A stretch of DNA of 64,000 nt, from assembly GCA_030390025.1 (NCBI GenBank), contig CM059432.1, positions 93,622,001-93,686,000 on the forward strand. Reading direction: 5' to 3'. Made by a program: the position numbers and the translations under genes. Source of the DNA: Squalus acanthias (lineage: Eukaryota). Positions 1,881-63,075 of the stretch are shown in pieces; within the stretch, counting starts at the first letter, position 1, and the number at the start of each line of letters is the position of its first letter. A model generated the notes under the pieces. It did not search any database. It had not been told where the DNA came from and saw only the letters and a program-made list of their open reading frames with translations.

Positions 1881-1962
1881 AATATATTTCCAAGTCAGGA
1901 TGGTATGTAATTTGATGGGGAACTTGTAGGTGATGATGGCGACTGCTGCCCTTGTCCTTCTA

Positions 1963-3497
1963 AGAACATAAGAAATAGGAGCAGGAGTAGGCCATTCGGC
2001 CCTTCGAGCCTGCTTTGCCATTCAATGAGATCATGGCTAATCTTCTGCCTCAATTCCATTCACCGGCCCTATCGCCATATCCCTTGATGACATTACTAGT
2101 CAGAAATCTATCGACTTCTGTTTTGAATATACCCAATGACCGAGCCTCCACAGCCCTCTGGGGTAGAGAATTCCAAAGATTCACCACCCTGTGTGTGAAG
2201 AAATTTCTTCTCAGCTCAGTCCTGAATGGCCTACCCTTTATCCCGAGGCTGTGGCCCCTGGTTCTAGACTCCCCAGCCAAGGGAAACATTCTCCCAGCAT
2301 CCACCCTATCAAGCCCTGTAATAATTTTGTATGCTTCAATGAGATCCCCTCTCATTCTTCTGAATTCAAGAGAATACAGGCCTAGTTTACTCAATCTCTT
2401 CTCATACGACAGTCCCGCCATCCCAGGAATCAATCTCGTGAACCTTCGTTGCACTCCCTCTATGGCAAGTATATCCTTCCTTAGGTAAGGAGACCAAAAT
2501 TGTACACAGTACTCCAGGTGTGGTCTCACCAAGGCCCTATATAATTGGAGTAAGATTTCTTTACTCCTGTACTCAATTCCTCTTGTAATGAAGGCTAGCA
2601 TACCATTTGCCTTCCTAATGGCTTGCTGCACCTGTACATTCACTTTCAGTGACTCTTGTACAAGGATACCCAGGTCTCTTTGCGCATCTGCATTCCCCAA
2701 TCTTTCACCATTTAGGAAATATTCTGCCTTTCTGTTTTTTCTACCAAAGTGGATAACTTCATATTTATCCACATTATAATCCATCTGCCATGTTCTCGTC
2801 CACTCAGAGCCTGTCGAGATCCCCTTGAAGCCTCTTCACATCCTCTTTGCAACTGACACTGCCACCTAGCTTTGTGTCATCAGCAAATTTGGAAATGTTA
2901 CATTTAGTCCCCTCATCCAAATCATTGATATAGATTGTGAATAGCTGGGGCCCAAGCACCGATCCTTGCGGTACCCAACTAGTCACAGCCTGCCATCCTG
3001 AAAAAGACCCGTTTATCCCTACTCTTTGTTTTCTGTCTGTTAACCAATTCTCAATCCATGCTAGTATATTACCCCCAATTCGATGTGCCCTAATTTTGCT
3101 AACTTACCTGACGAAGGAGCGACAGCTCCGAAAGCTTGTAAAATTAAATAAATCTGTTGGACTATAACCTGGTGTTGTGCGACTTCTAATTTTGTTCACC
3201 AACCTTTTGTGTGGGACCTTATCGAAGGCTTTTTGAAAATCCAAATACACATCTACCGGTTCCCCTTTGTCTACTCCACTAGTTACAGCCTCAAAGAACT
3301 CCAATAGATTTGTCAAACAGGACTTCCCTTTCATAAATCCATGTTGACTCTGCCCAATCTTACTATTAGTTTCTAAGTGCCCAGTTATTGCATCCTTTAT
3401 AATAGATTCCAGCATTTTCCCAACTACTGATGTGAGGCTAACAGGTCTGTAGTTCCCCGTTTTCTCTCTCCCTCCTTTCTTAAATAGCGGGGTTACA
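1963..3497 (-). mobile_element. CR1 (HER1-like) LINE, 5'-truncated
   Basis: RT and C-terminal ORFs ([23 protein letters not shown]); (TTCTTATG)n tail; TTCTA target duplication at 1958-1962 and 3498-3502. Confidence 0.92.
3104..3141 (+). ncRNA. Minimal type I hammerhead ribozyme (Penelope-type)
   Basis: ttac-CTGACGA-a-ggagc(gaca)gctcc-GAAA-gc-tt-gtaa; lies in a ~87-nt insertion in CR1. Confidence 0.8.
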
Positions 3498-5001
3498 TTC
3501 TAGGTGGTAGAGGTCGTGGGTTTGGGAGGTGCCGCCAAAGAAGTCTTGGCGAGTTGCTGCAGTGCATCTTGTAGATGGTGCACACTGCAGCCACGGTGTG
3601 CCGGTGGTGGAGGGAGTGAATGTTTGAGGTGGTGGATGAGGTGCCAATTAAGCGGACTGCTTTGTCCTGGATGGTGTTGAGTTTCTTGAGTGTTGTTGGA
3701 GCTGCACTCATCCAGGCAAATGGTGAGTATTCTCATCACACTCCTGACTTGTGCCTTGTAGATGATGGAAAGGCTTTGGGGAGTCAAGAGGTGAGACACT
3801 CGCCGCAGAATACCCAGCCTCTGACCTGCTCTTGTTACCACAGTATTTATGTGGCTGGTCCAATTAAGTTTCTGGTCAATGGTGACCCCCAGGATGTTGA
3901 TGGTGGGGTACTCGGCGATGGTAATGCCGCTGATGTCAAGGGGAGGTGGTTAGAATCTCGCTTGGTGGAGACAGTCATTGCCTGGCACTTGTGTAGCATG
4001 CATGTTACCTGCCTCTTATCAGTCCAAGCTTGAATGTCGTCCAGGTATTGTTGCATGCGGGCATGGACTGCTTCATTATCTGAGGAGCTACGAATGGTAC
4101 TGAACACTATGCAAACATCAGCGAACATCCCCACTTCTGACCTTATGATGGAGGGAAGGTCATTGATGAAGCAGTTGAAGATGGTTGGGCCTAGGACACT
4201 GCCCTGAGGAACTCCTGCAGCGATGTCCTGGGCCTGAGATGATTGACCTCCAACAACCACTACCATCTTCCTTTGTGCTAGGTATGACTCGAGCCAGTGG
4301 AGAGTTTTCCCCGATTCCCATTGACTTCAAATTACTAGGGCTCCTTGATGCCACACTCGGTTAAATGCTGCCTTGGTGTCAAGGGCAGTCACTCTCACCT
4401 CACCTCTGGAATTCAGCTCTTTTGTCCATATTTGGACTAAGGCTGTAATGAGGTCCGGATCCGAGTGGTCCTGGCGGAACCCAAACTAAGCATCAGTGAG
4501 CAGGTTGTTGGTGAGTGAGTGCCACTTGATAGCAGTGTCGATGACACCTTCCATTACTTTGCTGATGATTGAGAGTAGACTGATGGGGCGGTAATTGGCC
4601 AGATTGGATTTGTCCTGCTTTTTGTGGACAGGACATATCTGGGCAGTTTTCCACAATGTCGGGTCGATGCCAGTGTTGTAGCTGTACCGGAACAGCTTGG
4701 CTAGAGGCACAGCTAGTTCTGGAGCACAAGTCTTCAGCACTACAGCCGGGATGTTGTCAGGGCCCATAGCCTTTGCTGTATCCAATGCGCTCAGCCGTTT
4801 CTTGATATCACGTGGAGTGAATCGAACTGGCTGAAGACTGGCTTCTGTGATGGTGGGGACCTCGGGAGGAGGCCGCGATGGATCATCCACTCGGCACTTC
4901 TGGCTGAAGATGGTTGCAAACGCTTCAGCCTTGTCTTTTGCACTCGCGTGATGGGCTCCACCATCATTGAGGATGGGGATGTTCATGGAGCCTCCTCCTC
5001 C

Positions 5002-8000
5002 TTTAAACTAATTAAAGGGGGGGTGGGAGGATTCAGGAAAGAGTGAATTTAAAAGCAGCGAGAGAAATGTCAAGGCTCTAGAGCAGAGTAGAGTTTTAGG
5101 TAAAAATAAGCAGAGTGGGTCAGGAAGGGTCAGAGAGAGTAACAAAGGTAATAAGGCATCAGTGACTAAGGTGACATCAGGGAAAAATAGAAATAAGTCA
5201 AAGCTAAAGGCACTATATCTGAATGTGCGAAGCATTCGCAACAAAGTAGATGAATTAATAGCGCAGGTAGAAATGAACAGGTTTGATCTACTAGCCATAA
5301 TGGAGACATGGTTGCAAAGTGGCCAAGGTTGGGGACTAAATATTCCAATATGCTTAACTTTTAGAAGAGATAGGCAAAATGAAAAAAGAGGAGGGGTAGC
5401 CCTGAAAATAAAGGATGGGATAAAGACAGTAGAGAGAAAGGATCTTAGCTCCGAAAATCAAGAAATAGAATCTGTTTGGGTGGAACTAAGAAACAGCAAG
5501 GGGTAGAAAACATTGGTGGGAGTTGTTTATAGGCCCCCAAATAGTAGTTGTAATGTAGGGCAGAGTATAAATCAGGAAATTAGAGGCACATGTAGCAAGG
5601 GTAATACAGTAATCATGGGGGACTTTAATCTACATATGGACTGGGCAAACCAAATTTGCAGTAATAATGTGGAGGACGAATTCATGGAATGTATGCAAGA
5701 TAGTTTTCTAGATCAGTATGTTGAGGAACCAATTATGGAACAGGCTATTTTAGATCTAGTATTGTAGAATGAGAAAGGGTTAATTAATAACCTTGTAGTA
5801 AAGGGGCCTTTAGGGAAGAGTGACCATAATATGACAAAATTTTATATTTAGTTTGAAAGTGATTTAGTTAAATCCAAAACTAGGGTCTTAAATCTAAACA
5901 AAGCAAACTACGTAGTTATGAGGGGCGAGTTGGCCAAGGTAGATTGGGAAACTACATTAAAAGATATGATGGTAGACAAGCAATGGCTAGCATTTAAAGA
6001 AATAATACATAGTTTACAACAAATATACATTCCTTTAAGGCACAAAAACCCCACAGGAAAAAGTGGTCCAACCGTGGCTAACAAGAGAAGTTAAAGATAG
6101 TATTAGATCAAAGGAAGAGGCTTAAAATGTTGCCAAAAAGAGTAGTAAGCCTGAGGATTGGAAGGATTTTAGAATTCAGCAAAGGATGATCAAGAAATTG
6201 ATAAGGAAAGAGAAAAAAGAATTGAGAGTAAACTAGCGAGAAACATAAAAAGACAGTAAAAGCTTCTACAGTATAAGTATGTAAAAAGGAAAAGATTAGC
6301 AAAAGTAAATGTGGGTCCCTTACAGGCTGAGACAGGAGAAACTATAATGGGGAATAAGGAAATGGCAGAGAAATTAAACAAATACTTTGTGTCTGTCTTC
6401 AAGGAAGAAGATGCAAAAAACTTCCTGGAAATAGTGGAGAACCAAGGCTCTAGCGAGAATGAGGAACTGAAAGAAATCAGTATTAGTAAAAAAAAAATAG
6501 TACTGGAGAAATTAATAGGACTGAAAGCTGATAAATCCCCTGGACTGGATGGCCTGCATCCTAGGGTTTTGAAAGAGGTGGCTATAGAGATAGTGGATGC
6601 ATTGGTTGTCATTTTCCAAAATTCCATAGATTCTAGAACGGTTCCCGCGATTGGAAGATAGCAAATGTAACCCCACTATTTAAGAAAGGAGGGAGGGAGA
6701 AATCGGCAACTACAGATTAGTTAGCCTGACATCAGTAGTAGGGAAAATGCTAGACTATTATTAAGGATGTGATAACAGGGCACTTAGAAAATAATAATAG
6801 GATTGGGCAGAGTCAACACGGATTTATGAAAGGGAAATCATGTTTGACAAATCTGTTAGAGTTTTTTGAGGTTGCAACTAACAGAATAGATGAGGGGGAA
6901 CCGGTGGATGTGGTGTATTTGGATTTTCAGAAGACATTCAATAAGGTGCCACACAAGAGGTTATTAAACAAAATTAGGGCTCATGGGATTGGGGGTAATA
7001 TACTAGCATGGATTGAGGATTGGTTAACAGACAGAAAACAGAGAGTAGGAATAAACGGGTCATTTTCGGGTTGGCAGGCTGTAACTAGTGGGGTACCGCA
7101 AGGATCAGTGCTTGGGCTTCAGCTTGTAAGGTTTCCAAAATTTGCAGATCCCCAAAACCTAAGGAAAAAGGACTTTGGAACTACCCCAGAGTGATAAAAA
7201 TGCATTTGGGCCTAACATAAGGAATTTAAGACCAAAAACCAAGTTTTGGCATTTTAAAAGACATGTCTGGACCTGTAAGGGAGAAAAGGCTGCACAGGAG
7301 GTGGGGTCGACCTCTATAAAAGCAGTTTTGGGTATTGCAGTTAAATTGCATTGTCTGGGGAATCGGGATGACCTCACTCAAGCCCCAGCAAGCATTAACA
7401 TTTTGACAATAAACCCTAGGAGAAGACAGTCTCATCCCATCAAAAACCAATCAGCTAAGAAGATCGACAGGATGCAAACCATCCAAAAAAAACCATTTGA
7501 CACTTACAGAACCCATTAAAGACATGCATAAAGATAGGAGTCCTAGGCCCAGTCAAGAAACCCAAAACATGAGGACAATGCAAACTCCGATTAAACAACA
7601 GATCGACAGGATGGAGCTATCTTGAATCCACTTCACACATTTATAAAACCAGTTAACATGCTAGTAAAGTCATTACTGTTAACGAGGTCTTACAATGAAC
7701 AGGATTTGATTTGGTTTTGACAAGGCCACTTCAATTTAGTATAATTGAAAGCCCATCAAGCAGTTACAACAGTTCAGTAAGAGGGGAGTTCAAGTTCTCC
7801 AGTAAAACAGTTCAAGTTCAACAGAAGGCAGTTCTACAGTTCAATCGAAAAGCCTGTTTTCAGCAAGAAGTCAGGGCTGGAGATAGAGTTCAGGAGAAGC
7901 AGGCAGAAGGCAGTTTCTACAGTTCTGCAAGAAGGCAGTTCCACAGCTCGGAAGAAGACAGTTTAAACAAAGGCAGAGTTACAGCAAGAAGTTCAACAAA

Positions 8001-9441
8001 GAAGGCCAACAACTTCACAAGCAGACCAACACGCAAGAAGAAACCAGAGCGACTGCCTCAGTGACCATCAGACACCTCACGGCAACAAGGGCCTTACGAA
8101 ACCTTTTACTCAAAAGACTCTAAACCCTAACTCTCAACTGTCAAGGATTCGTTTGGTGAGCATTATCCTTGGTTCTCCAGAGTCCAACCTAGCTAGTGAA
8201 GTGGGATTGGGAGGGGTGAAGTATTCTTCTAAGATTATTTCCCTCGCTTGTACCAATGTGTTCCCCAACCTGTGTTTAAGCATTAAGAGTGTTTTAAGTT
8301 TGTTACCTTTTTCTTTTAATAAAGTCAAAATTCTTTCATCAGAACCTGTTGTCCACTGCATCCTTATTCACAACCCCTAAATAAGTCCAAGGTCTAGAAC
8401 CAGGGGCGTGGGAGCGATTCGAACCGCTCACTGAGTCAGAGGTGAGGCTGACCCTATACACCACCCCCTACAAACTATTCACAATCTACATCAATGATTT
8501 GGATGAGGGGACCAAATGTAATATATTCAAGTTTGCTGATGATACAAAGTTGGGAGGGAATGTAAGTTGTGAGGAGGATGCAAGAAGGCTTCAAGGGGAT
8601 ATAGACAGGCTAAGTGAGTGGGCAAGAACATAGCAAATGGAATATAATGTGGAGAAATGTGAAGTTATCCATTTTGGTAGGAAAAATAGAAAAGCAGAGT
8701 ATTTTTTAAGTGGTGAGAGATTGGGAAATGTTGTTGTTCAGAGGGACCTGGGTGTCTTTGTACACGAATCACTGAAAGTTAACATGCAGGTACAGCAAGC
8801 AATTAAGAAAGCAAATGGTATGTTGGCCTTTATTACAAGAGGATTTGAGTATAAGAGTAAAGACATCCTACTGCAATTATATAGGGCCCTGGTGAGACCA
8901 CACCTGGAGTATTGTGTACAGTTTTGGTCTCCTACTTGCCATAGAGGGAATGCAACGAAGGTTCACCAGACTGATTCCTGGGATGGGGGGATTGTCCTAT
9001 GAGGAGAGATTGAGTAGACTAGACCTATATTCTCTAGAGTTTAGAAGAATGAGAGGTGATCTCATTGAAACATACAAAATTCTTACAGGGCTTGACAGGG
9101 TAGATGCAGGGAGGATGTTTCCCCTGGCTGGGGAGTCTAGAACCAGGGGTCACAGTCTCAGAATAAGTGGTCGGCCATTTAGGACTGAGATGAGGAGAAA
9201 TTTCTTCACTCAGAGGGTAGTGAATCTTTGGAATTCTCTACCCCAGAGGGCTGTGGAGGCTTAGTCATTGAGTATATTCAAGACAGAGATCAATAGATTT
9301 TTGAATATTAAGGAAATCAAGGGATATGGGGATAGTTCAGGAAAGTGAAGATGAGGTAGAAGATCAGCCATGATCTTATTGAATGGCAGAGCAGGCTCGA
9401 AGGGCCAAATGGCCTATTCCTGCTCCTATTTCTTATGTTCT
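5002..9441 (+). mobile_element. CR1 LINE, nearly complete ORF2 (APE + RT), decayed, split by a solo LTR
   Basis: [42 protein letters not shown]; 3' tail ttcttatgttct. Confidence 0.93.
7125..8472 (+). mobile_element. Solo LTR (~1.35 kb), Gypsy-like
   Basis: TGTAAGG...CCCTACA termini; 4-bp target duplication agct/aact; interrupts CR1 RT at QL|FTIY; AATAAA at 8318; no PBS or PPT in the flanks. Confidence 0.85.
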
Positions 9442-11819
9442 CCCATTAGTTGTTTAATTGTCCACCACCATTCACGACTGGACATTGATTGTGGGATTGC
9501 TTAGCTGTCTATAGCATGCTGCTTCTACTGTTTAGCATGCATGTAGTCCTGTGTTGCAGCTTTCCCAGGTTGGCACCTCATTTTTAGGTATGCCTGGTGT
9601 TGCTCCTGGCATGCTCTTCTGCACTCCTCATTGAACCAGATTTGGTCCCCTGACATGATGGTAACGGTCGAATGAGGGATATGCCAGGCCATGATGTTAC
9701 AGATTGTGGTGGAATACAATTCTGTTGCTGCTGATGGCCCACAGCGCCTCATGAATGCCCAGTTTTGAGCTGCTAGATGTATTCTGAATCTATCCCATTT
9801 AGCACGGTGGTAGTGCCACACAACACGATGGAGTGTGTCCTCAGTCTGAAGACGGGATTTCATCTCCACAAGGAGACGAATTCCCATGATCACTGCTACC
9901 AATGCGGTCATGGACAGATACAGCTGCGACAGGTAGATTGATGAGGACGAGGTCAAGTAGGTTTTTCCTTCGTGTTGGTTCTCTCACCACCTGTCGCAGG
10001 CCCAGTCTGGCAGCTATGTCCTCAGCCAGCTCGGTCAGTAGTGGTGCTACCGAGCCACTCTTGGTGATGGACATTGAAGTCCCCCACCCAGAGTACATTC
10101 TGTGCCCTTGCTACCCATGTGTTCAACATGGAGCAGTATGGATTCATCAGCTAAGGGAGGGTGGTAGGTGGTAATCAGCAGGAGGTTTCCTTGCCTGTAG
10201 TTGACCTGAAGCCATTGTTCAGAGTCAATGTTGAGGACTCCCAGGGCCACTTCCTCCTGACTGAATACCACTGTGCCGCCACCTCTGGTGGATCTGTCCT
10301 GCCAGTGGCACAGAGCATACCCAGGGATGGTGATGGAGGAGTTTGGGACATTGGCTGAAAGGTATGATTCTGTGAGTATGACTATGTCAGGCTGTTGCTT
10401 GACTAGTCTGTGGGACAGCTCTCCCAATTTTGACATAAGTCCCCACATGTTAGTGAGGAGGTCTTTGCAGGGTCGACTGGGCTGGGTGTGCCATTGTTGT
10501 GTCCGAAGCTGGTGCCTAGGTCGATGCCAGGTGGTCCATCCGGTTTTATTCTTGTTATTGCTTTTCATAGCTGTTTGTTACAACTGAGTGGCTTGCTAGG
10601 CCATTTCAGAGGGCAGTTAAGAGTCAACCACATTGCTGTGGGTCTGGAGTCACATATAGGCTAGGCCAGACCAGGTAAGGACAGCAGATTTCCTTCCCTA
10701 AAGGACATTAGTGAAACAGATGGGTTTTTACGACAATCCGGTAGTTTCATGGTCACCATTACTGATACTTTTGAGCATTATGAGGTAATTTGTTTGTTTA
10801 AGCAAAGTTATGATTAAACAGTAAGTCATACAACTTAATAGTGCAGTTAAAGATAAATTTTCCACTCCTGGCACAGGTTGGGAGCATAAATCAGCAATAC
10901 GCATCCCTTGCCCATAAATTTTCCTCCCATAAATATCAAGCAGAAATTTATCTTTAAATGATTTAAAGCAGGAATGTAAAGAGATTAACCAGCAAACAAT
11001 GAGGAAAGCTGTGGATGAGGTGGGGCGGGGAATGTCTGGAACAGAAAAGGAATTGCAAACAGGTCAGGAAAGGATGCAGACAGGTGGGAAGGCAATGTAG
11101 TCGGTCCTTAAAATCTACTTCACCTGTCTTAATATGGCTCGATGTCAAATTTTGTCTGATAACGCTGCTGTGATGTGCCTTGGGACGTTTTACTACATTA
11201 AAGGTGCTAAATAAATACAAGTTATTGTTGTAGCAGAAGGGTTGGGGCCTAAAGGGACAAAGGGTGTATTTTTTGAGTCCCACTCCTCCCACAGGGCTGC
11301 TGGACCATGCTCCCCCCAATACTGCCAGAGTTTGACCTGCCAAATCTCCAAAACCACTTCCCCAATCCTCCCGAATTCCAGGACCTCCTCCCATGATACC
11401 CTCTCCCCCTTTTCCAGATCCGGGATCCCCCTCTCAAATCCCTAGACAGCATTCTCAGATCTCAGGATCACCCTGAGACCATCCTCTCCAACACTCCCCA
11501 GATGACCCCTACCAGTGAGCTCGGATTCCAAAATCTGCCCCAGTGTTCCCAGAACTTCTTTCTTCAGTGTACCCGGAACCCCCTCCTAGTGCAGGGAAGG
11601 GACCTACTCTCAAAATACATCTAGAGCCCGATACCCCATCCCAATACTGCCAGACCTCAGGCCTTGTTCCCAGATCCTAGAGCCACCCCAATGCTGTGTC
11701 CCTGAATATTACTTTGCTCAACATCCCTGTCCTTCTACAATTTCCAACGACTGTGACCAATGCTGCAGATCTGCTAGTATGTCGAATACATAATAGCTAT
11801 TAGAGAAACAGTCCATCTT

Positions 11820-12973: not shown

Positions 12974-13836
12974 CAGCAGCAAATTACCCAGCTTTCAGGA
13001 GAACAGCGACCACGACACAACCCTGCCACGGCAACCTCTGCAAGACATGCCAGATCATCAACACAGATACCATCATCACACGTGAGGACACCACCCACCA
13101 GGTACATGGTACATACTCATGTGACTCAGCCAACATTGTCTACCTCATACGTTGCAGGAAAGGATGCCCCGGAGCATGGTACATCGGCGAGACCATGCAG
13201 ACACTGCGACAACGTATGAACGGACACCGCGCAACAATCACCAGGCAGGAGTGTTCCCTCCAAGTCGGGGAACACTTCAGCAGTCAAGAACATTCAGACT
13301 CCGATCTTCGGGTAAGCATTCTCCAAGGCGGCCTTCGAGACACACGACAACGCAAAATTGTCGAGCAGAAACTGATAGCCAAGTTCCGCACCCATGAGGA
13401 CGGCCTCAACCGGGATCTTGGGTTCATGTCACGCTACATGTAACCCCACCTGACGTAGAGTCATCCAGACTCGAGTCGTCGTTGGCTTGTTCTCTCTACA
13501 CAGATGCGGCTGGACCTGCTGTGATTTCCAGCAAAAAAAGTTTTTTGTTTTCCATACAGACCCCAGCATCTGCCACATTGTCTTTGATGTAATGTTTTCC
13601 TGACTGACCTGTTTGGACACCATCCACACCTTTGATTGCAGTGATTATCTCTCTGCCGAGGTGTGATAAAGGGCAGTTGGAAAGATTAACTATAATCATC
13701 TGGCAGTGTTCTCTGACTATATATGCTGTGACTATATGCATCTCTTCACTTCACCTGACGAAGGAGCAGCGCTCCGAAAGCTTGTGATTTCAAATAAAGC
13801 TGTTGGACTATAACCTGGTGTTGTGCGACTTCTCAC
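12974..13836 (+). mobile_element. Penelope-like element, 3' part (GIY-YIG endonuclease + pseudo-LTR)
   Basis: CDSANIVYLIRCRKGCPGAWYIGETMQTLRQRMNGHR...GLNRDLG; hammerhead near the 3' end. Confidence 0.9.
13751..13787 (+). ncRNA. Minimal hammerhead ribozyme in Penelope-like element
   Basis: tcac-CTGACGA-a-ggagc(agc)gctcc-GAAA-gc-tt-gtga. Confidence 0.82.
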
Positions 13837-16875: not shown

Positions 16876-17063
16876 CCTTTTCTAATAAAACCATAAGGGG
16901 ATACTGGGTTGCCCCAGTGTCATCAAACAAAAATGCCCCCTTTTTAGAGAGGCACAACTAATAAGGAACTAAGCTTTGTTTTATTTTTTTAATTTGTTCC
17001 TGGGATGTGGGCATCGCTGGCAAGGCCAGCATTTATTGCCCATCCCTAATTGTCTTTAAGAAG

Positions 17064-17879
17064 TCATGATGTGGAGATGCCGGCGTTGGACTGGGGTGGA
17101 CAAAAATGAGAAGTCGCACAACACCAGGTTATAGTCCAACAGATTTATTTAATTTTACAAGCTTTCGGAGCTATCGCTCCTTCGTCAGGTAAGTTAGCAA
17201 TGAGAGAATCTCCCAGAATTCACAATTTAAACCCAGACAAAATCTATTCACATTATTCGCTACAACAAAGAGCACAGCCAAGACAATGAGATGTGTCCCA
17301 GGGGGTCCAGCGTGTCAAACCACCTGCTGGCTGCATATCCTGTCAATTTGTGTTCTTGTGTTTTTAAAAAAAAAACAAAAAAAAAACAAAAAAAAAACAA
17401 AAAAAAACACCTGGGAAGACCGGCCATGATGTCAAGTCACGTTCTGTATCGTGACATGAACCCGATATCGCGATTGAGGCCATCCTCATGAGTGCGGAAC
17501 TTGGCTATCAGTTTCTGCTCTATGATTTTGCGCTGTCGTGTATCTCGAAGGCCGCCTTGGAGAACGCTTACCCGCAGATCCGAGGCTGAATGCCCCTGGC
17601 TGCTGAAGTGTTCCCCGACTGGGAGGCAACCCTCCTGCCTGGCGATTGTTGCGCGGTGTCCGTTCATACGTTGTCTCAGTGTCTGCATGGTCTCGCCGAT
17701 GTACCATGCTCTGGAGCATCCTTTACTGCAACGTATCAGGTAGACAACGTTGGCCGAGTCACATGAGTAGGTACACGGTACATACTCATGTGACTCGGCC
17801 AACGTTGTCTACCTGATACGTTGCAGTAAAGGATGCTCCAGAGCATGGTACATCGGCGAGACCATGCAGACACTGAGAC
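17064..17879 (-). mobile_element. Penelope-like element with 5' snap-back inversion
   Basis: GIY-YIG ORF 17437-17802; 97-bp inverted repeat; hammerhead at 17155-17192. Confidence 0.9.
17155..17192 (-). ncRNA. Minimal hammerhead ribozyme in Penelope-like element
   Basis: Reverse complement reads ttac-CTGACGA-a-ggagc(gata)gctcc-GAAA-gc-tt-gtaa. Confidence 0.82.
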
Positions 17880-20695
17880 TGTTAGGGAGGGAGTTCCAGG
17901 ATATTGACCCAGCGATGGTGAAGGAATGGTAATATATTTCCAAGTCAGGGTGGTTTGTAACTTGGAGAGGAACTTGCAGGTGATGGTGTTCCCATGCACC
18001 TGCTGCCCTTGTCCTTCTAGGTGGTAGAGGAAGAGGTCACAGGTTTGGGAGGTGCTGTCAAAGAAGCCTTGGCGAGTTGCTGCAGTGTATCTTGTAGATG
18101 GTACACACTGCAGCCATGGTGTACCGGTGGTGGAGGGAGTGACTGTTTAAGGTGGTGGATGACACTTGCCGCAGAATACCCAGCCTCTGGACCTGCTCTT
18201 GTAGCCACAGTATTTATATGGCTGGTTAATGGTGACCCCCCCCCCCCCCCAGAATGGTGATGGTAATGCCGTTGAATGTCAAGGGACAGTAGCTAGACTC
18301 TCTCTTGTAGAGATGTCATTGCCTGGCACTTGTGTGGCGTGAATGTTACTTGCCACTTATCAGCCCAAGCTTGAATGTTGTCCAGGTCTTGCTGCATTCG
18401 GGCATGGACTGCTTCATTATCTGGGGGAGTTGCGATTGGAATTGAACACTGTGCAATCATCAGCGAACATCCCCACTTCTGACCTTATGATGGAGGGAAG
18501 GTCCTTGAAGCAGCTGAAGATGGTTGGGCCTAGGACACTGTCCTGAGGAACTCCTGCAGTGATGTCCTGGGGCTGAGATGATTGACCTCCAACAACCACC
18601 TTCCTTTGTGCTAGGTAGGACTCCAGCCAGTGGAGAGTTTTCCTCTGATTCCCATTGACTTCAATTTTACTAGGGCTCCTTGATGCTACAATCGGTCAAA
18701 TGCTGCCTTGATGTCAAGGGCAGTCACTCTCACCTCACCTCTGGAATTCAGCTCTTTTGTCCATGTTTGGACCAAGGCTGTAATGCGGTCTGGAGCAAAG
18801 TGGTCCTGGCAGAACCCAAACTTATTGGAGAGTAAGTGCCGCTTGATAGCACTGTCGACGACACCTTCCATCACTTTGCTGATGATTGAGAGTAGACTGA
18901 TGGGGCGGTAATTGGCCAGATTGGATTTGTCCTGCTTTTTGTGGACAGGACATACCTGGGCGGTTTACCACATTGTCGGGTAGATGTCAGTGTTTTAACT
19001 GTACTGGAACAGCTTGGCTAGAGGTGCAGCTAGTCTGGAGCACAGGTCTTCAGCACGACAGCTGGTATGTTGTCGGGGCCCATAGCGTTTGCTGTATCCA
19101 GTGCACTCAGCCGTTTCTTGATATCTCGTGGAGTGAACGAATTGGCTGAAGACTGGCTTCTGTGATGATAGGATGTCAGGAGGAGGCCGATATGGATCAT
19201 CCGCTCGGCACTTCTGGCTGAAGATGGTTGCAAACGCATCAGCCTTGTATTTTTCGCTCGCGTTTTGGGCTCCTCCATCATTGAGGATGGGGATATTCAT
19301 GGATGTTTAATTGTCCACCACCATTCACGACTGGATGTGGCAGGACTGCAGAGCTTTGATCTTGCTCCATTGGTTGTGGGATTGCTTAGCTCTGTCTATA
19401 GCATGCTGCTTTCGCTGTTTAGCATGCATGTAGTCTTGTGTTGCAGCTTCCTCAGGTTGGCACCTCATTTTTAAGTATGCCTGGTGCTTTTCCTGGCATG
19501 CTCTTCTACACTCCTCATTGAACCAGGGTTGGTCCCCTGGCTTGATGGTAATGGAGTGAGGGATATGCCAGACCATGAGGTTACAGATTGTGGTGGAGTA
19601 AAATTCTGCTGCTGCTGCTGATGCCTCATGGATGGCCAGTTTTGAGCTGCTAGATCTGTTCTGAATCTATCCCATTTAGCACGGTGGTAGTGCCACACAA
19701 CACGATGGAGGGTGCCCTCACTGAAGACGGGTCTTTGTCTCCACAAGGACTGTGGTGCTCACTGCTAACAATGCTGTCATGGACAGATGCATCTGCAACT
19801 AGTAGATTGGTGAGGACGAGGTCAAGTAGGTTTTTCCCTCGTGTTGGTTGTCTCACCACCTGCCGCAGACCCAGTCTGGCAGCTATGCCCTTCAGGACTC
19901 AGCCAGCTCCGTCAGTAGTGGTGCTACCGAGCCACTCTTGGTGCTGGCCATTGAAGTCCCCCACCCAAAGTACATTCTGTGACCTTGCTACCCTCAGTGC
20001 TTCTTCCAAGTGGTGTTCAACATGGAGTAGTACTGATTTATCAGCTGAGGGAGGGCGGTAGGTGGTAATCAGCAGGAGGTTTCCTTGCCTATGCTTGACC
20101 TGAATCAATGCGACTTCATGAGGTCCTGAGTCAATGTTGAAGACTCCCAAGGCCAATCCCTCCCTCCCGTATACCACTGTGCCGCCACCCCTGGTGGGTC
20201 TGTCCTGTTGATGGCGGAGTCTGGGACATTGGCTGAAAGTGATTCTGTGAGTATGACTATGTCAGGCTGTTGCTTGACTAGTCTGTGTGACAGCTCTCCC
20301 AATTTTGACACAAGTCCCCAGATGCTAGTGAGGAGGACTTTGCAGGGTTGACTGGCCTGGGTGTGCCATTGTCATGTCCAAAGTCGGTGCTGAGGCCGAT
20401 GCCAGGTGGTCTCTCTGGTTTTATTATTATTGTGTTTCGTAGCGGTTTGTTACAACTGAGTGACTTGCTAGGCCATTTCAGAGAGCAGTTAAGAGTCAAC
20501 CACATTGCTGTGGGTCTGGAGTCACATGTAGGCCAGACCAGGTAAGGACGGCAGATTTCCTTCCCTAAAGGACATTAGCGAACCAGATGCGTTTTTACGA
20601 CAATCCGATAGTTTTCATGGTCACCATTACTGATGCTAGCTTTTTATTCCAGATTTATTTCATTAACTGAATTTAAATTCCCCAGCTGCCGTGGT

Positions 20696-20771
20696 GGGAT
20701 TTGAACTCATGTCTCTGGATTATTAGTCCAAGCCTCTGGATTACTAGTCCAGTAACATAACCACTATGCTA
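20696..20771 (-). promoter_or_regulatory. Pol III type-2 internal promoter (A box TAGCATAGTGG 20771-20761; B box GAGTTCAAATCCC 20708-20696)
   Basis: Match to TRGCNNARYGG and GTTCRANNC consensus at the element's 5' end. Confidence 0.75.
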
Positions 20772-20799
20772 CCGTTCCCGTAATAAAACAAAGGAAGCT

Positions 20800-49905: not shown

Positions 49906-50220
49906 ATCCTACTCTAAGATATCCACAAAGGTCAAGGAAACCTCCAAATTGTTTGGACCTGCAGATAGTTATGAGTGTAGTAGTTCTCATTATGGTTCTA
50001 GTATTAGCATAACCCATCTTTCCTGTGTATTACCGGGAGAGTGCTATAGTTATTTATTTTTATCATGTAATTGTAAGATGTAGTGACTGAATTTCTTTAC
50101 TTAATTTTTTTTTAACATTAACCAGGCTCATTCTAGGAGATGATTGTTTTCACCTTGTAATTCTGAGGGGGGAAAGTGACACCAGATGGACCCCTGTTGG
50201 GAATAAGCACATTGTAGCTA

Positions 50221-50493
50221 TTTTTTTATTTATTCACGTGGGCATCGCTGGCAAGGCCAGCATTTATTGCCCATCCCTGGTGAGCCGCCTTATATAACTG
50301 GCTTGCCAGGCCATTTCAGAGGGCATTTAAGTGTTAACCACATTGCTGTGGGTCTCGAGTCACATGTAGGCCAGACTGGGTAAGGATGGCAGATTTCCTT
50401 CCCTGAAGGACATTAATGAACCAGATGGGTTTTTCTGACAATCCAGTAGTTTCATGGTCACCATTACTGATACTAGCTTTTTATTCCAGATTT
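50221..50493 (-). mobile_element. SINE made of LINE-B 5' body joined to LINE-B 3' tail (SacSINE1-like; 5'-truncated)
   Basis: 50297-50493 matches 20455-20655; 50221-50291 matches the LINE-B 3' end. Confidence 0.8.
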
Positions 50494-61982: not shown

Positions 61983-63075
61983 ATGGGGGCTCTACTGGCA
62001 GCCCCCCTCACGCTCAAGTATCTTCGGGAGAGGGAGCAGAGGCAGCGAAGAAGTCAAGAAGATACGCGCAGAGAGAGGAGGAGGAGGAGGGCCAGGGGGC
62101 TCTCCACAGGAGGCCTTACCCACCTAGAGTCTTCTGAGAGCACTTCTCTTATATCCACTTAAGCGAAGAGCAGTGTATTAGGATGCTCTGCTTCACCAAG
62201 GAGGTGGTCACAGAACTCTGCCACCTCCTGCAACCAGACCTGCAGCCTGAGCTCCTAGTGGCAGTCAAAGTCACCGTGGCCCTCAATTTCTTTGTCAGCA
62301 GTTACATCCAGTCTGTAGCAGGAGACATAGCTAACATCTCACAGTTCGCTGTCCATTGCTGCATCTGGGAGGTCACTGAGGCTTTCTACACCAGGAGAAG
62401 GGACTACATTTTCTTCTCTCTCAGCAGAGAGAAGCAGGACGAGTGCGCATGTGGCTTTGCCAGGATAGCGGGCATCCCCATGATGCAGGATGCCATCAAC
62501 TGCACTCACGTGGCTTTGCGGGCACCGCATAACAATCCTGAGATCTCCTATAACTGCAAAGGCTACCACTCACTTAATGTGCATTTGGTGTGTGACCACA
62601 CCCAGCACTTCCTGATGGTCAGTTCCCGCTATCCTGGCAGCAGCCATGATGCCTTCACCCTGCGTCAGTCTGATGTGCCAGCAATCTTCCAGCCACCACA
62701 TAAAACTCGAGGGTGGCTGCTCGGAGACAAGATTCTATCCGCTCTGCACTTGGCTCATGATTCCTCTCCGCAACCCCAACACTCATGCCCAGCACTCATA
62801 TAATGAGACTCATGCTTCCACCAGGAACATCATCAAGCAGACCATCGAGCTACTGAAGCAACAGTTCCACTACCTTGACCACTCGGGAGTAGCCCTCCAG
62901 TAGTCGGCAGAGCGGGTGTCCCATTTCGTGGTGGTCTGCTGCGTGCTTCACAACTTGGCCATCATGAAGGTGTAGCCATACCACCAGGGATTGGGGGACC
63001 ACCTCAGGAGGAGGATGAGGGAAAGGAGGAGGAGGAGGAAGAGGAAGATGAGCAAGAGGAAGAGGACAAGTAGGA
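61983..63075 (+). pseudogene. Harbinger (HARBI1-like) DDE transposase, inactivated
   Basis: RRPYPPRVF*..VKVTVALNFF..QDAINCTHVALRAP..KGYHSLNV..YPGSSHDAF..LLGDK..HASTRNIIKQ..CVLHNLA; acidic tail; stops and frameshifts. Confidence 0.88.

Follow-up and report, generated by a model that had tools for sequence, protein, structure and literature searches.

Long interspersed elements (LINEs) are described in reviews as protein-coding units transcribed by RNA polymerase II (Pol II), and short interspersed elements (SINEs) as short, non-coding units of RNA polymerase III (Pol III), whose length is ascribed to the weak processivity of that enzyme (PMC10886601, PMC5786205). The closest described relatives of the element treated here are the five elasmobranch Zenon elements of Stuart et al. 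(2026), which lack ORF1 (ORF, open reading frame), are A-tailed and are not yet in repeat libraries (PMC13343379). We analyzed a stretch of 64,000 nucleotides (nt) of Squalus acanthias DNA (assembly GCA_030390025.1, contig CM059432.1, positions 93,622,001 to 93,686,000 of the forward strand; hereafter the window), in which a retrotransposon copy occupies positions 20779-16984 of the minus strand and consists of a tRNA-like head, a body, a reading frame for an APE endonuclease and a reverse transcriptase (RT), and a short A-tail. It is a degraded copy of a retrotransposon of 3.3 kb with a single ORF that is common in sharks and rays; judged by its 5' end, it belongs to the elasmobranch Zenon family of the CR1 group. 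We argue that this family is quite likely transcribed by Pol III and likely translated from a non-AUG start.

The assignment to Zenon is based on the match of the 5' ends to the published consensus sequences, which were compared by eye over the first 400 nt of each row; all later statements on the published rows have this scope. The seven elasmobranch rows represent five species, among them a ray, and each row opens with the same head and body. The five consensus sequences (CarCar, RhiTyp, ScyCan, SquAca and HypSab Zenon) have head, body and leader in an identical layout, with a nearly invariant body and retained A and B boxes, and represent the same family; like the window family, they have a single APE-RT ORF, no ORF1, an A-tail and a length of 3.2-3.3 kb (PMC13343379). 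The original prediction had correctly read an A box and a B box on the minus strand, followed by a SINE-like body and, close by, the APE domain, whose motif I begins at 20335, 120 nt past the end of the body near 20456. It was also right that there is no ORF1, which is the rule for Zenon and hence not unusual (PMC13343379). The single ORF with APE and RT and the poly-A tail of the family are those of Zenon.

Such a head was not seen at the Zenon 5' end in the coelacanth row or the two hagfish rows. A quick RT tree, which contained no named Zenon, placed the family apart from the CR1 elements of the host genome and among invertebrate relatives. The closest RT relatives outside sharks (amphioxus, crustaceans and other contigs) reach at most ~50% identity, and no relative was found in viral contigs. 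Proteins annotated in two further shark genera include ORF fragments at 74-82% identity, and one of these proteins contains the body end, leader and APE in order, read out of frame. Relatives of the family have a similar leader, but after an AUG. The two closest metagenome relatives that include a 5' end (L091 and L095, of 19 loci) have an AUG before APE and a short, unrelated 5' region; based on these two, the head was apparently gained in the lineage of sharks and rays. Separately, L091:430-700 and L095:370-520 share a short conserved 5' region of their own, unrelated to the shark head. The element is thus real and of a known family: Zenon and its absence of ORF1 are already described, and what is undescribed is the mode of expression, which probably breaks the rule. 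The accessible main text of PMC13343379 does not mention tRNA, Pol III, polymerase, promoter, IRES, translation or start codon. No description of a coding LINE with a tRNA head was found among the papers listed by full-text searches; Repbase, Dfam, subscription papers and supplements may hold an earlier remark.

Genomic evidence supports a fixed head-ORF junction, the autonomy of the element and its Pol III transcription. In the 3.7-Gb host genome, a query of head, body and APE gave 10,403 candidates, of which 40 were scored, and all 40 span from position 8 or earlier to position 639 or later of the 681 query positions; furthermore, the sequences of 30 loci begin to agree only at the head, with its first G. 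Since the scored matches cover nearly the whole query and the flanks diverge exactly at the head, the junction is not a chance placement of a SINE beside a LINE, as had been predicted. When loci were picked by APE alone (best 30 of 40 scored, 5,207 candidates), 25 of the 29 non-self loci reached the start of the head, two of them across an insertion and three with short deletions; one of the remaining four begins within the head and three are cut in the body or leader. Among these 29 loci no alternative shared 5' end or upstream sequence was found, and no ORF1 upstream of the head. An exact pattern from the body end to the APE start 92-122 nt later had 3,434 matches in the genome (reversed control, 0), so that the body-to-APE junction is present at at least 3,434 loci. 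Ten extended copies, selected for reaching the locus edge, all run from the head to the same tail, ~3.0-3.3 kb from the head, which bears out the predicted contiguity of head, body and ORF, and at three of the ten the sequences on the two sides together make up a single host repeat. Linkage between variants of the head and of the ORF extends to distances of 2 kb (position 21 with 1436, 1.4 kb apart, p=1.6e-7), though it is not significant for every variant pair. The flanking target-site duplications that the original prediction proposed to look for were not seen: none longer than ~4 bp was present in the ten copies. The flanks of the main window copy (20790-20780 and 16990-16975) are inverted, not direct, repeats of each other over ~12 nt.

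Of 20 sampled body matches, 11 are short head-body-tail elements; forms this common might suggest that a SINE and truncated LINEs were joined by chance time and again, or that a LINE inserts preferentially into a SINE. This explanation is already refuted, and retains a negligible probability: the junction is single and fixed at thousands of loci, head and ORF are linked, the 3' flanks are unrelated and the 5' end is identical in five species; it is in the short elements that the junctions vary instead. The second copy in the window, which the original prediction had taken as independent evidence (10770-1881), shares the body-to-APE junction with the main copy. It keeps body and ORF, in pieces split by CR1 insertions, but its tRNA head and 3' tail are missing, and therefore it does not itself confirm the head.

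The family majority sequence is 3,314 nt long and contains one frame of 973 codons from stop to stop; Pfam matches on sister copies were PF03372/PF14529 and PF00078. Changes in the ORF that are shared (non-CpG changes in at least 4 of 50 copies) comprise 29 synonymous and 34 non-synonymous ones, compared with 287:862 for singletons (p=5.5e-4), and within the 42 copies that bear an in-frame TAA ahead of the ORF the ratios are 25:20 and 267:726 (p=1.2e-4). The ORF evolved under purifying selection, and given this pattern in the shared changes, the source elements made a working protein, ordinary for its clade. The predicted autonomy of the element is thereby upheld on genomic grounds, an ORF with APE and RT under selection suggesting a self-sufficient source. 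With A and B boxes in a tRNA-like head of weak Rfam score, the element resembles a SINE2; the full element, at 3.3 kb and with a selected ORF, is neither short nor non-coding, and only its short derivatives are both. The window copy itself is dead (88.8% identity to the family majority), with stops, frameshifts, a 155-nt deletion and the nested insertion at 17878-17064. Many copies, including this one, share the loss of short segments between small direct repeats near the start of APE (family positions ~560-620).

Transcription from an internal Pol III promoter, as originally predicted, is quite likely given that the A and B boxes are kept and T-runs are depleted. The sense strand of the majority sequence contains no TTTT in 3.3 kb, compared with 15 A-, 11 C- and 9 G-runs; for TTTT alone, 3.9 were expected (P=0.018). 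Windows with four T in five positions numbered 1 where 20.3 were expected, and 0 of 2000 shuffles were as low; within the ORF, 9.4 (P=0.004) and 10.9 (P=0.0003) were expected under two codon models, and A, C and G have no corresponding deficit. The observed/expected ratio (O/E) of TTTT was 0.12 in the family copies, which are not independent of one another and of younger age than the control LINEs, compared with 1.04-1.48 for five control CR1- and L2-like LINE queries in the same genome. Relatives outside sharks with frames >500 codons have 7-21 T-runs (O/E ~0.5-2.2). Since this depletion is unlike that of other LINEs of the genome and of the non-shark relatives, it points to Pol III transcription. 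The age and non-independence of the copies weigh against this reading, as do three further points. With codons fixed, the TTTT depletion is modest (P=0.11-0.15); the strong result depends on the four-in-five measure; and the head is a weak tRNA match in Rfam, with 19 bits in the window copy (cut-off 29) and 16-24 bits in three of four other copies, the best (24.4 bits, E 0.046) being below the cut-off. ARAGORN called no tRNA gene. Contigs of two sequencing runs that are presumably RNA cover all 30 bins, but contigs reveal neither transcript starts, strand nor polymerase; these runs, and small shares in two metagenome RNA runs, carry no weight in the argument.

A poor tRNA match would also agree with a head that is a relic or exapted element on a capped Pol II transcript, in which T-runs are avoided for another reason. 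The AATAAA in the tail fits such a transcript, and the characterised LINEs are all described as products of Pol II or of Pol I read-through, Pol III being poorly processive (PMC10886601). We consider this decidedly improbable, given a depletion that is confined to T and to the sense strand, covers near-terminators and is not seen in other LINEs or relatives, the retention of the A and B boxes in five species, and the presence of eight upstream ATGs and three AATAAA in the first 360 nt. T-runs stand only near the 3' terminus, ahead of the A-tail: 31 of 36 parsed tails have 1-9 T between AATAAA and the A-tail, mostly 1-3, with at least four T in 8 of 36; A-tail slippage could mimic such a T-run pattern at the 3' end. 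The T+ SINEs (B2, Dip, Ves, Can, C1) share with the window family a tRNA head, AATAAA, a variable T-run and an A-tail, but they are short and non-coding and have been reported from placental mammals only (PMC12984919); most tails of the window family have 1-3 T.

If the RNA is made by Pol III, its translation would have to be unusual, and a non-AUG start of the ORF is likely from the sequence of its 5' part. The first in-frame Met is codon 287, past APE. The last of the eight upstream ATGs is in frame and is followed by a TAG and, in this genome, a TAA; exact patterns found both stops at 2,001 loci, the TAA only at 652 and neither at 320, and among 50 long copies both stops are present in 29/50 and the open pattern in 2/50. 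In four other species the frame is open from an invariant GCT codon into the leader, without an ATG and with lengths in whole codons, and the spacer of 9-10 nt before GCT varies; one published row for the family is out of frame by one base near GCT. Leader length changes in this genome are also whole-codon in 58/62 cases, but this stretch is an AAT repeat and the evidence is therefore weak. Decoding could also begin at GCT itself. The need for unusual translation is firmer than the original prediction had claimed, because the frame has no usable AUG.

Just upstream of the spacer lies an invariant hairpin with the loop CUAGCAA, whose AGC is complementary to GCU. This loop has what we take to be the form of an anticodon loop. 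In the commonest stem variant pairing is retained, with a G-U in 9/30 copies, and a pairing of the pseudoknot I (PKI) type is possible in the family, with three pairs and a linker of 10-12 nt depending on the stem end. The closest known parallel is the type 6 internal ribosome entry site (IRES) of the dicistrovirus intergenic region (IGR). In IGR IRESs the start without AUG is set by an anticodon-codon mimic, for which mutants need no more than three pairs, and the connecting loop (loop 3) has 6-10 nt (PMC3517527, PMC10516663). The window family likewise has a structured region of ~200 nt ahead of a probably non-AUG frame and a possible anticodon-codon mimic; IGR IRESs of type 6 have in addition nested PKII/PKIII with L1.1 motifs and factor-independent 80S binding. 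A 2013 review treated IGR IRESs in non-long-terminal-repeat elements only as a hypothetical possibility (PMC3894237).

A specific pseudoknot between the AGC loop and GCU, by analogy with these IRESs, is a tentative proposal that we consider somewhat doubtful. Only three loop-GCU pairs hold, the motif was found after the fact, the lowest-energy fold contains a helix that competes with the pseudoknot, and a stop-free path from the in-frame body AUG exists at 320 loci. Furthermore, there was no covariation for the pseudoknot beyond shuffles among 30 copies (148/500 shuffles pair equally well), and a search of five copies against Rfam, up to E 10, gave no IRES family. All of these weigh against the proposal. 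The folding of the body showed no excess stability (z 0.55).

Alternatively, ribosomes on a Pol III RNA might use the in-frame AUG of the body hairpin as start codon, with readthrough of the stops, or might translate a short upstream ORF first and reinitiate at a near-cognate codon such as ACG; neither route requires a tRNA-mRNA mimic. That AUG has a good context, is in the frame of the ORF and lies 11 codons upstream of GCT; L1 ORF2 tolerates the loss of its AUG. In three other species a single stop (TAG, then CAA) separates the AUG from the ORF, but here two in-frame stops are present in most copies (the 2,001 loci and 29/50 copies given above). ACG directly follows GCT in most copies of this genome, but is ACA or AAA elsewhere, and the spacer is one base shorter in one species. 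In one subfamily an early stop ends the overlapping upstream ORF of 76 codons.

The U of the TAG, which is the loop U of the hairpin (20470, family position 309), bears on this alternative. It is changed in 31/98 copies (C 18, G 11, A 2) and in 9/29 of the youngest copies, whereas at seven other CTAG sites only 4-12% are changed; the loss affects ~25-32% of copies whatever their subfamily or age, and the site is the least linked of 55 variable sites. This pattern fits an error at the time of insertion, e.g. the RT of the element misreading a modified base, so that the loop U may bear the mark of an RNA modification. All five species keep the U despite its recurrent loss, which indicates that it is needed. 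Its retention also argues against use of the body AUG, because loss of the U in ~1/4-1/3 of new copies removes the TAG and would open the frame. We regard a start at the body AUG or at a near-cognate codon as unlikely. A -1 frameshift from the 76-codon upstream ORF was also examined and set aside, there being no canonical slippery site by eye and that ORF ending early in one subfamily.

The open pattern, at 320 loci and in 2/50 long copies, could be taken to mean that only a minority of master elements, those with an open AUG frame, are autonomous and that they mobilized the stop-bearing majority in trans. Purifying selection inside the TAA-bearing copies speaks against this, as does the fact that the least diverged clade bears the stops and that the commonest open spacer type belongs to short derivatives at 5/6 sampled loci; we regard such mobilization as highly improbable. 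A non-AUG start in the GCT region is the reading that we retain.

Short elements result from repeated internal deletions that retain promoter and tail, and are SINE-like. Among 20 sampled body-end matches, taken in order from contig 1 outside the commonest junction list, APE follows in nine, and in the other 11 the body is joined to the 3' end, at any of several points. Persaeus, a lepidopteran Zenon derivative, is likewise an internal deletion with both ends kept, but is stated to be without tRNA homology and a Pol III promoter, unlike the shark short forms (PMC6740152). Bov-tA, SINE2-1_ACar and other tRNA-SINEs on bipartite RTE/Vingi LINEs also join a tRNA head to LINE-derived 5' and 3' parts, but are non-coding and received the head after the deletion; in the window family the order is reversed, a coding element with a head founding the short forms (PMC4494074, PMC5786205). 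The comparison with SacSINE1 and DeuSINEs that the original prediction had suggested failed. A Deu/SacSINE1 identity of the body was rejected: two motifs of a printed Deu alignment have no match in the body, and the alignments of three true Deu-type SINEs to head, body and tail do not exceed those of shuffled sequences. Genuine SINEs of the Deu type, which derive from tRNA, have an L2-type tail and form a separate family, lie in the flanks at L012:735-1210, L041:300-640 and L065:1-460.

The best explanation, fairly probable with all its steps taken together, is as follows. Transcription by Pol III with TFIIIC would begin at the first G and extend over all 3.3 kb, which the purging of T-runs from the template makes possible. 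The RNA may end at or past the T-run after AATAAA, followed by the A-tail, as in T+ SINEs, a step to which we give slightly less than an even chance. The uncapped RNA would be translated without an AUG from the GCT region, with the body most likely loading the ribosome internally, and the APE-RT protein would copy its own RNA by target-primed reverse transcription, which is established for the clade. Internal deletions leave promoter and tail intact and therefore give ready-made SINE-like elements.

Coordinates of the features of the Zenon copies in the window (position 1 is the first nucleotide of the window).
Feature	Position	Strand	Remarks
tRNA-like head	20690..20779	minus	sharp 5' boundary in 30 loci
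A box	20771-20761	minus	within head
Anticodon-like arm	20752-20736	minus	within head
Second similar arm	20731-20715	minus	within head
B box	20708-20696	minus	within head
Non-coding conserved body, ~235 nt	20456..20689	minus	contains most of the eight upstream ATGs
Body 3' hairpin	20456..20481	minus	7-nt anticodon-like loop CUAGCAA at 20471-20465
Spacer	20441..20455	minus	in-frame TAA 20452-20450; conserved GCT codon 20443-20441; putative start region
N-terminal leader, basic, Arg-rich	20336..20440	minus	in frame with APE, without ATG
APE endonuclease, reverse transcriptase and C-terminal part	17879..20335	minus	broken in the window copy
Later insertion(s)	17064..17878		strand unassigned; GIY-YIG fragment with inverted duplicate, Penelope-like; foreign to the element
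3' end	16984..17063	minus	last codons, 3' untranslated region with AATAAA, two T, short A-tail
Second copy	1882..10769	minus	three pieces: 10769-9440, 5001-3498, 1962-1882
Short derivative	50219..50493	minus	body fused directly to 3' tail, 5' part missing

Several further observations concern the head and the body. The anticodon-like arm of the head is duplicated in the window copy (20752-20715); in other species the second arm has a different sequence with pairing retained. The body 3' hairpin (20475-20461) resembles the first arm of the head, with one compensating change. Directly past the B box, 20695-20688 has a likeness to the beta polyadenylation signal of B2 SINEs, and may simply be a tRNA 3' end. 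Positions 20500-20480 have a weak likeness, of one 9-nt and one 7-nt word, to the UCON3 domain printed in a hagfish SINE supplement. Elsewhere in the window, Penelope-like GIY-YIG fragments are present at 17878-17064, with its inverted duplicate at 17673-17879, and at 13100-13835, and a DDE_Tnp_4 fragment, presumably of a Harbinger-type transposase, is present at 62138-62803.

The boldest form of the proposal, which we consider rather unlikely as a whole, is a protein-coding Pol III unit in a vertebrate genome: an uncapped 3.3-kb RNA whose body would recruit ribosomes by mimicking a tRNA-mRNA pair, with no need for an AUG. It would be the chromosomal equivalent of the IGR IRES, conserved in both sharks and rays, with a loop U that is maybe modified and with deletions that would found SINEs in one step. 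If true, the family would break the rule that assigns LINEs and SINEs to different polymerases. This raises three questions, all testable on a 345-nt fragment: whether a 3.3-kb Pol III RNA can be a working mRNA in vivo, whether a vertebrate chromosomal RNA can start translation without cap or AUG in the manner of an IGR IRES, and whether SINE bodies may be former translation elements of LINEs. It would also offer a one-step route from a LINE to a SINE.

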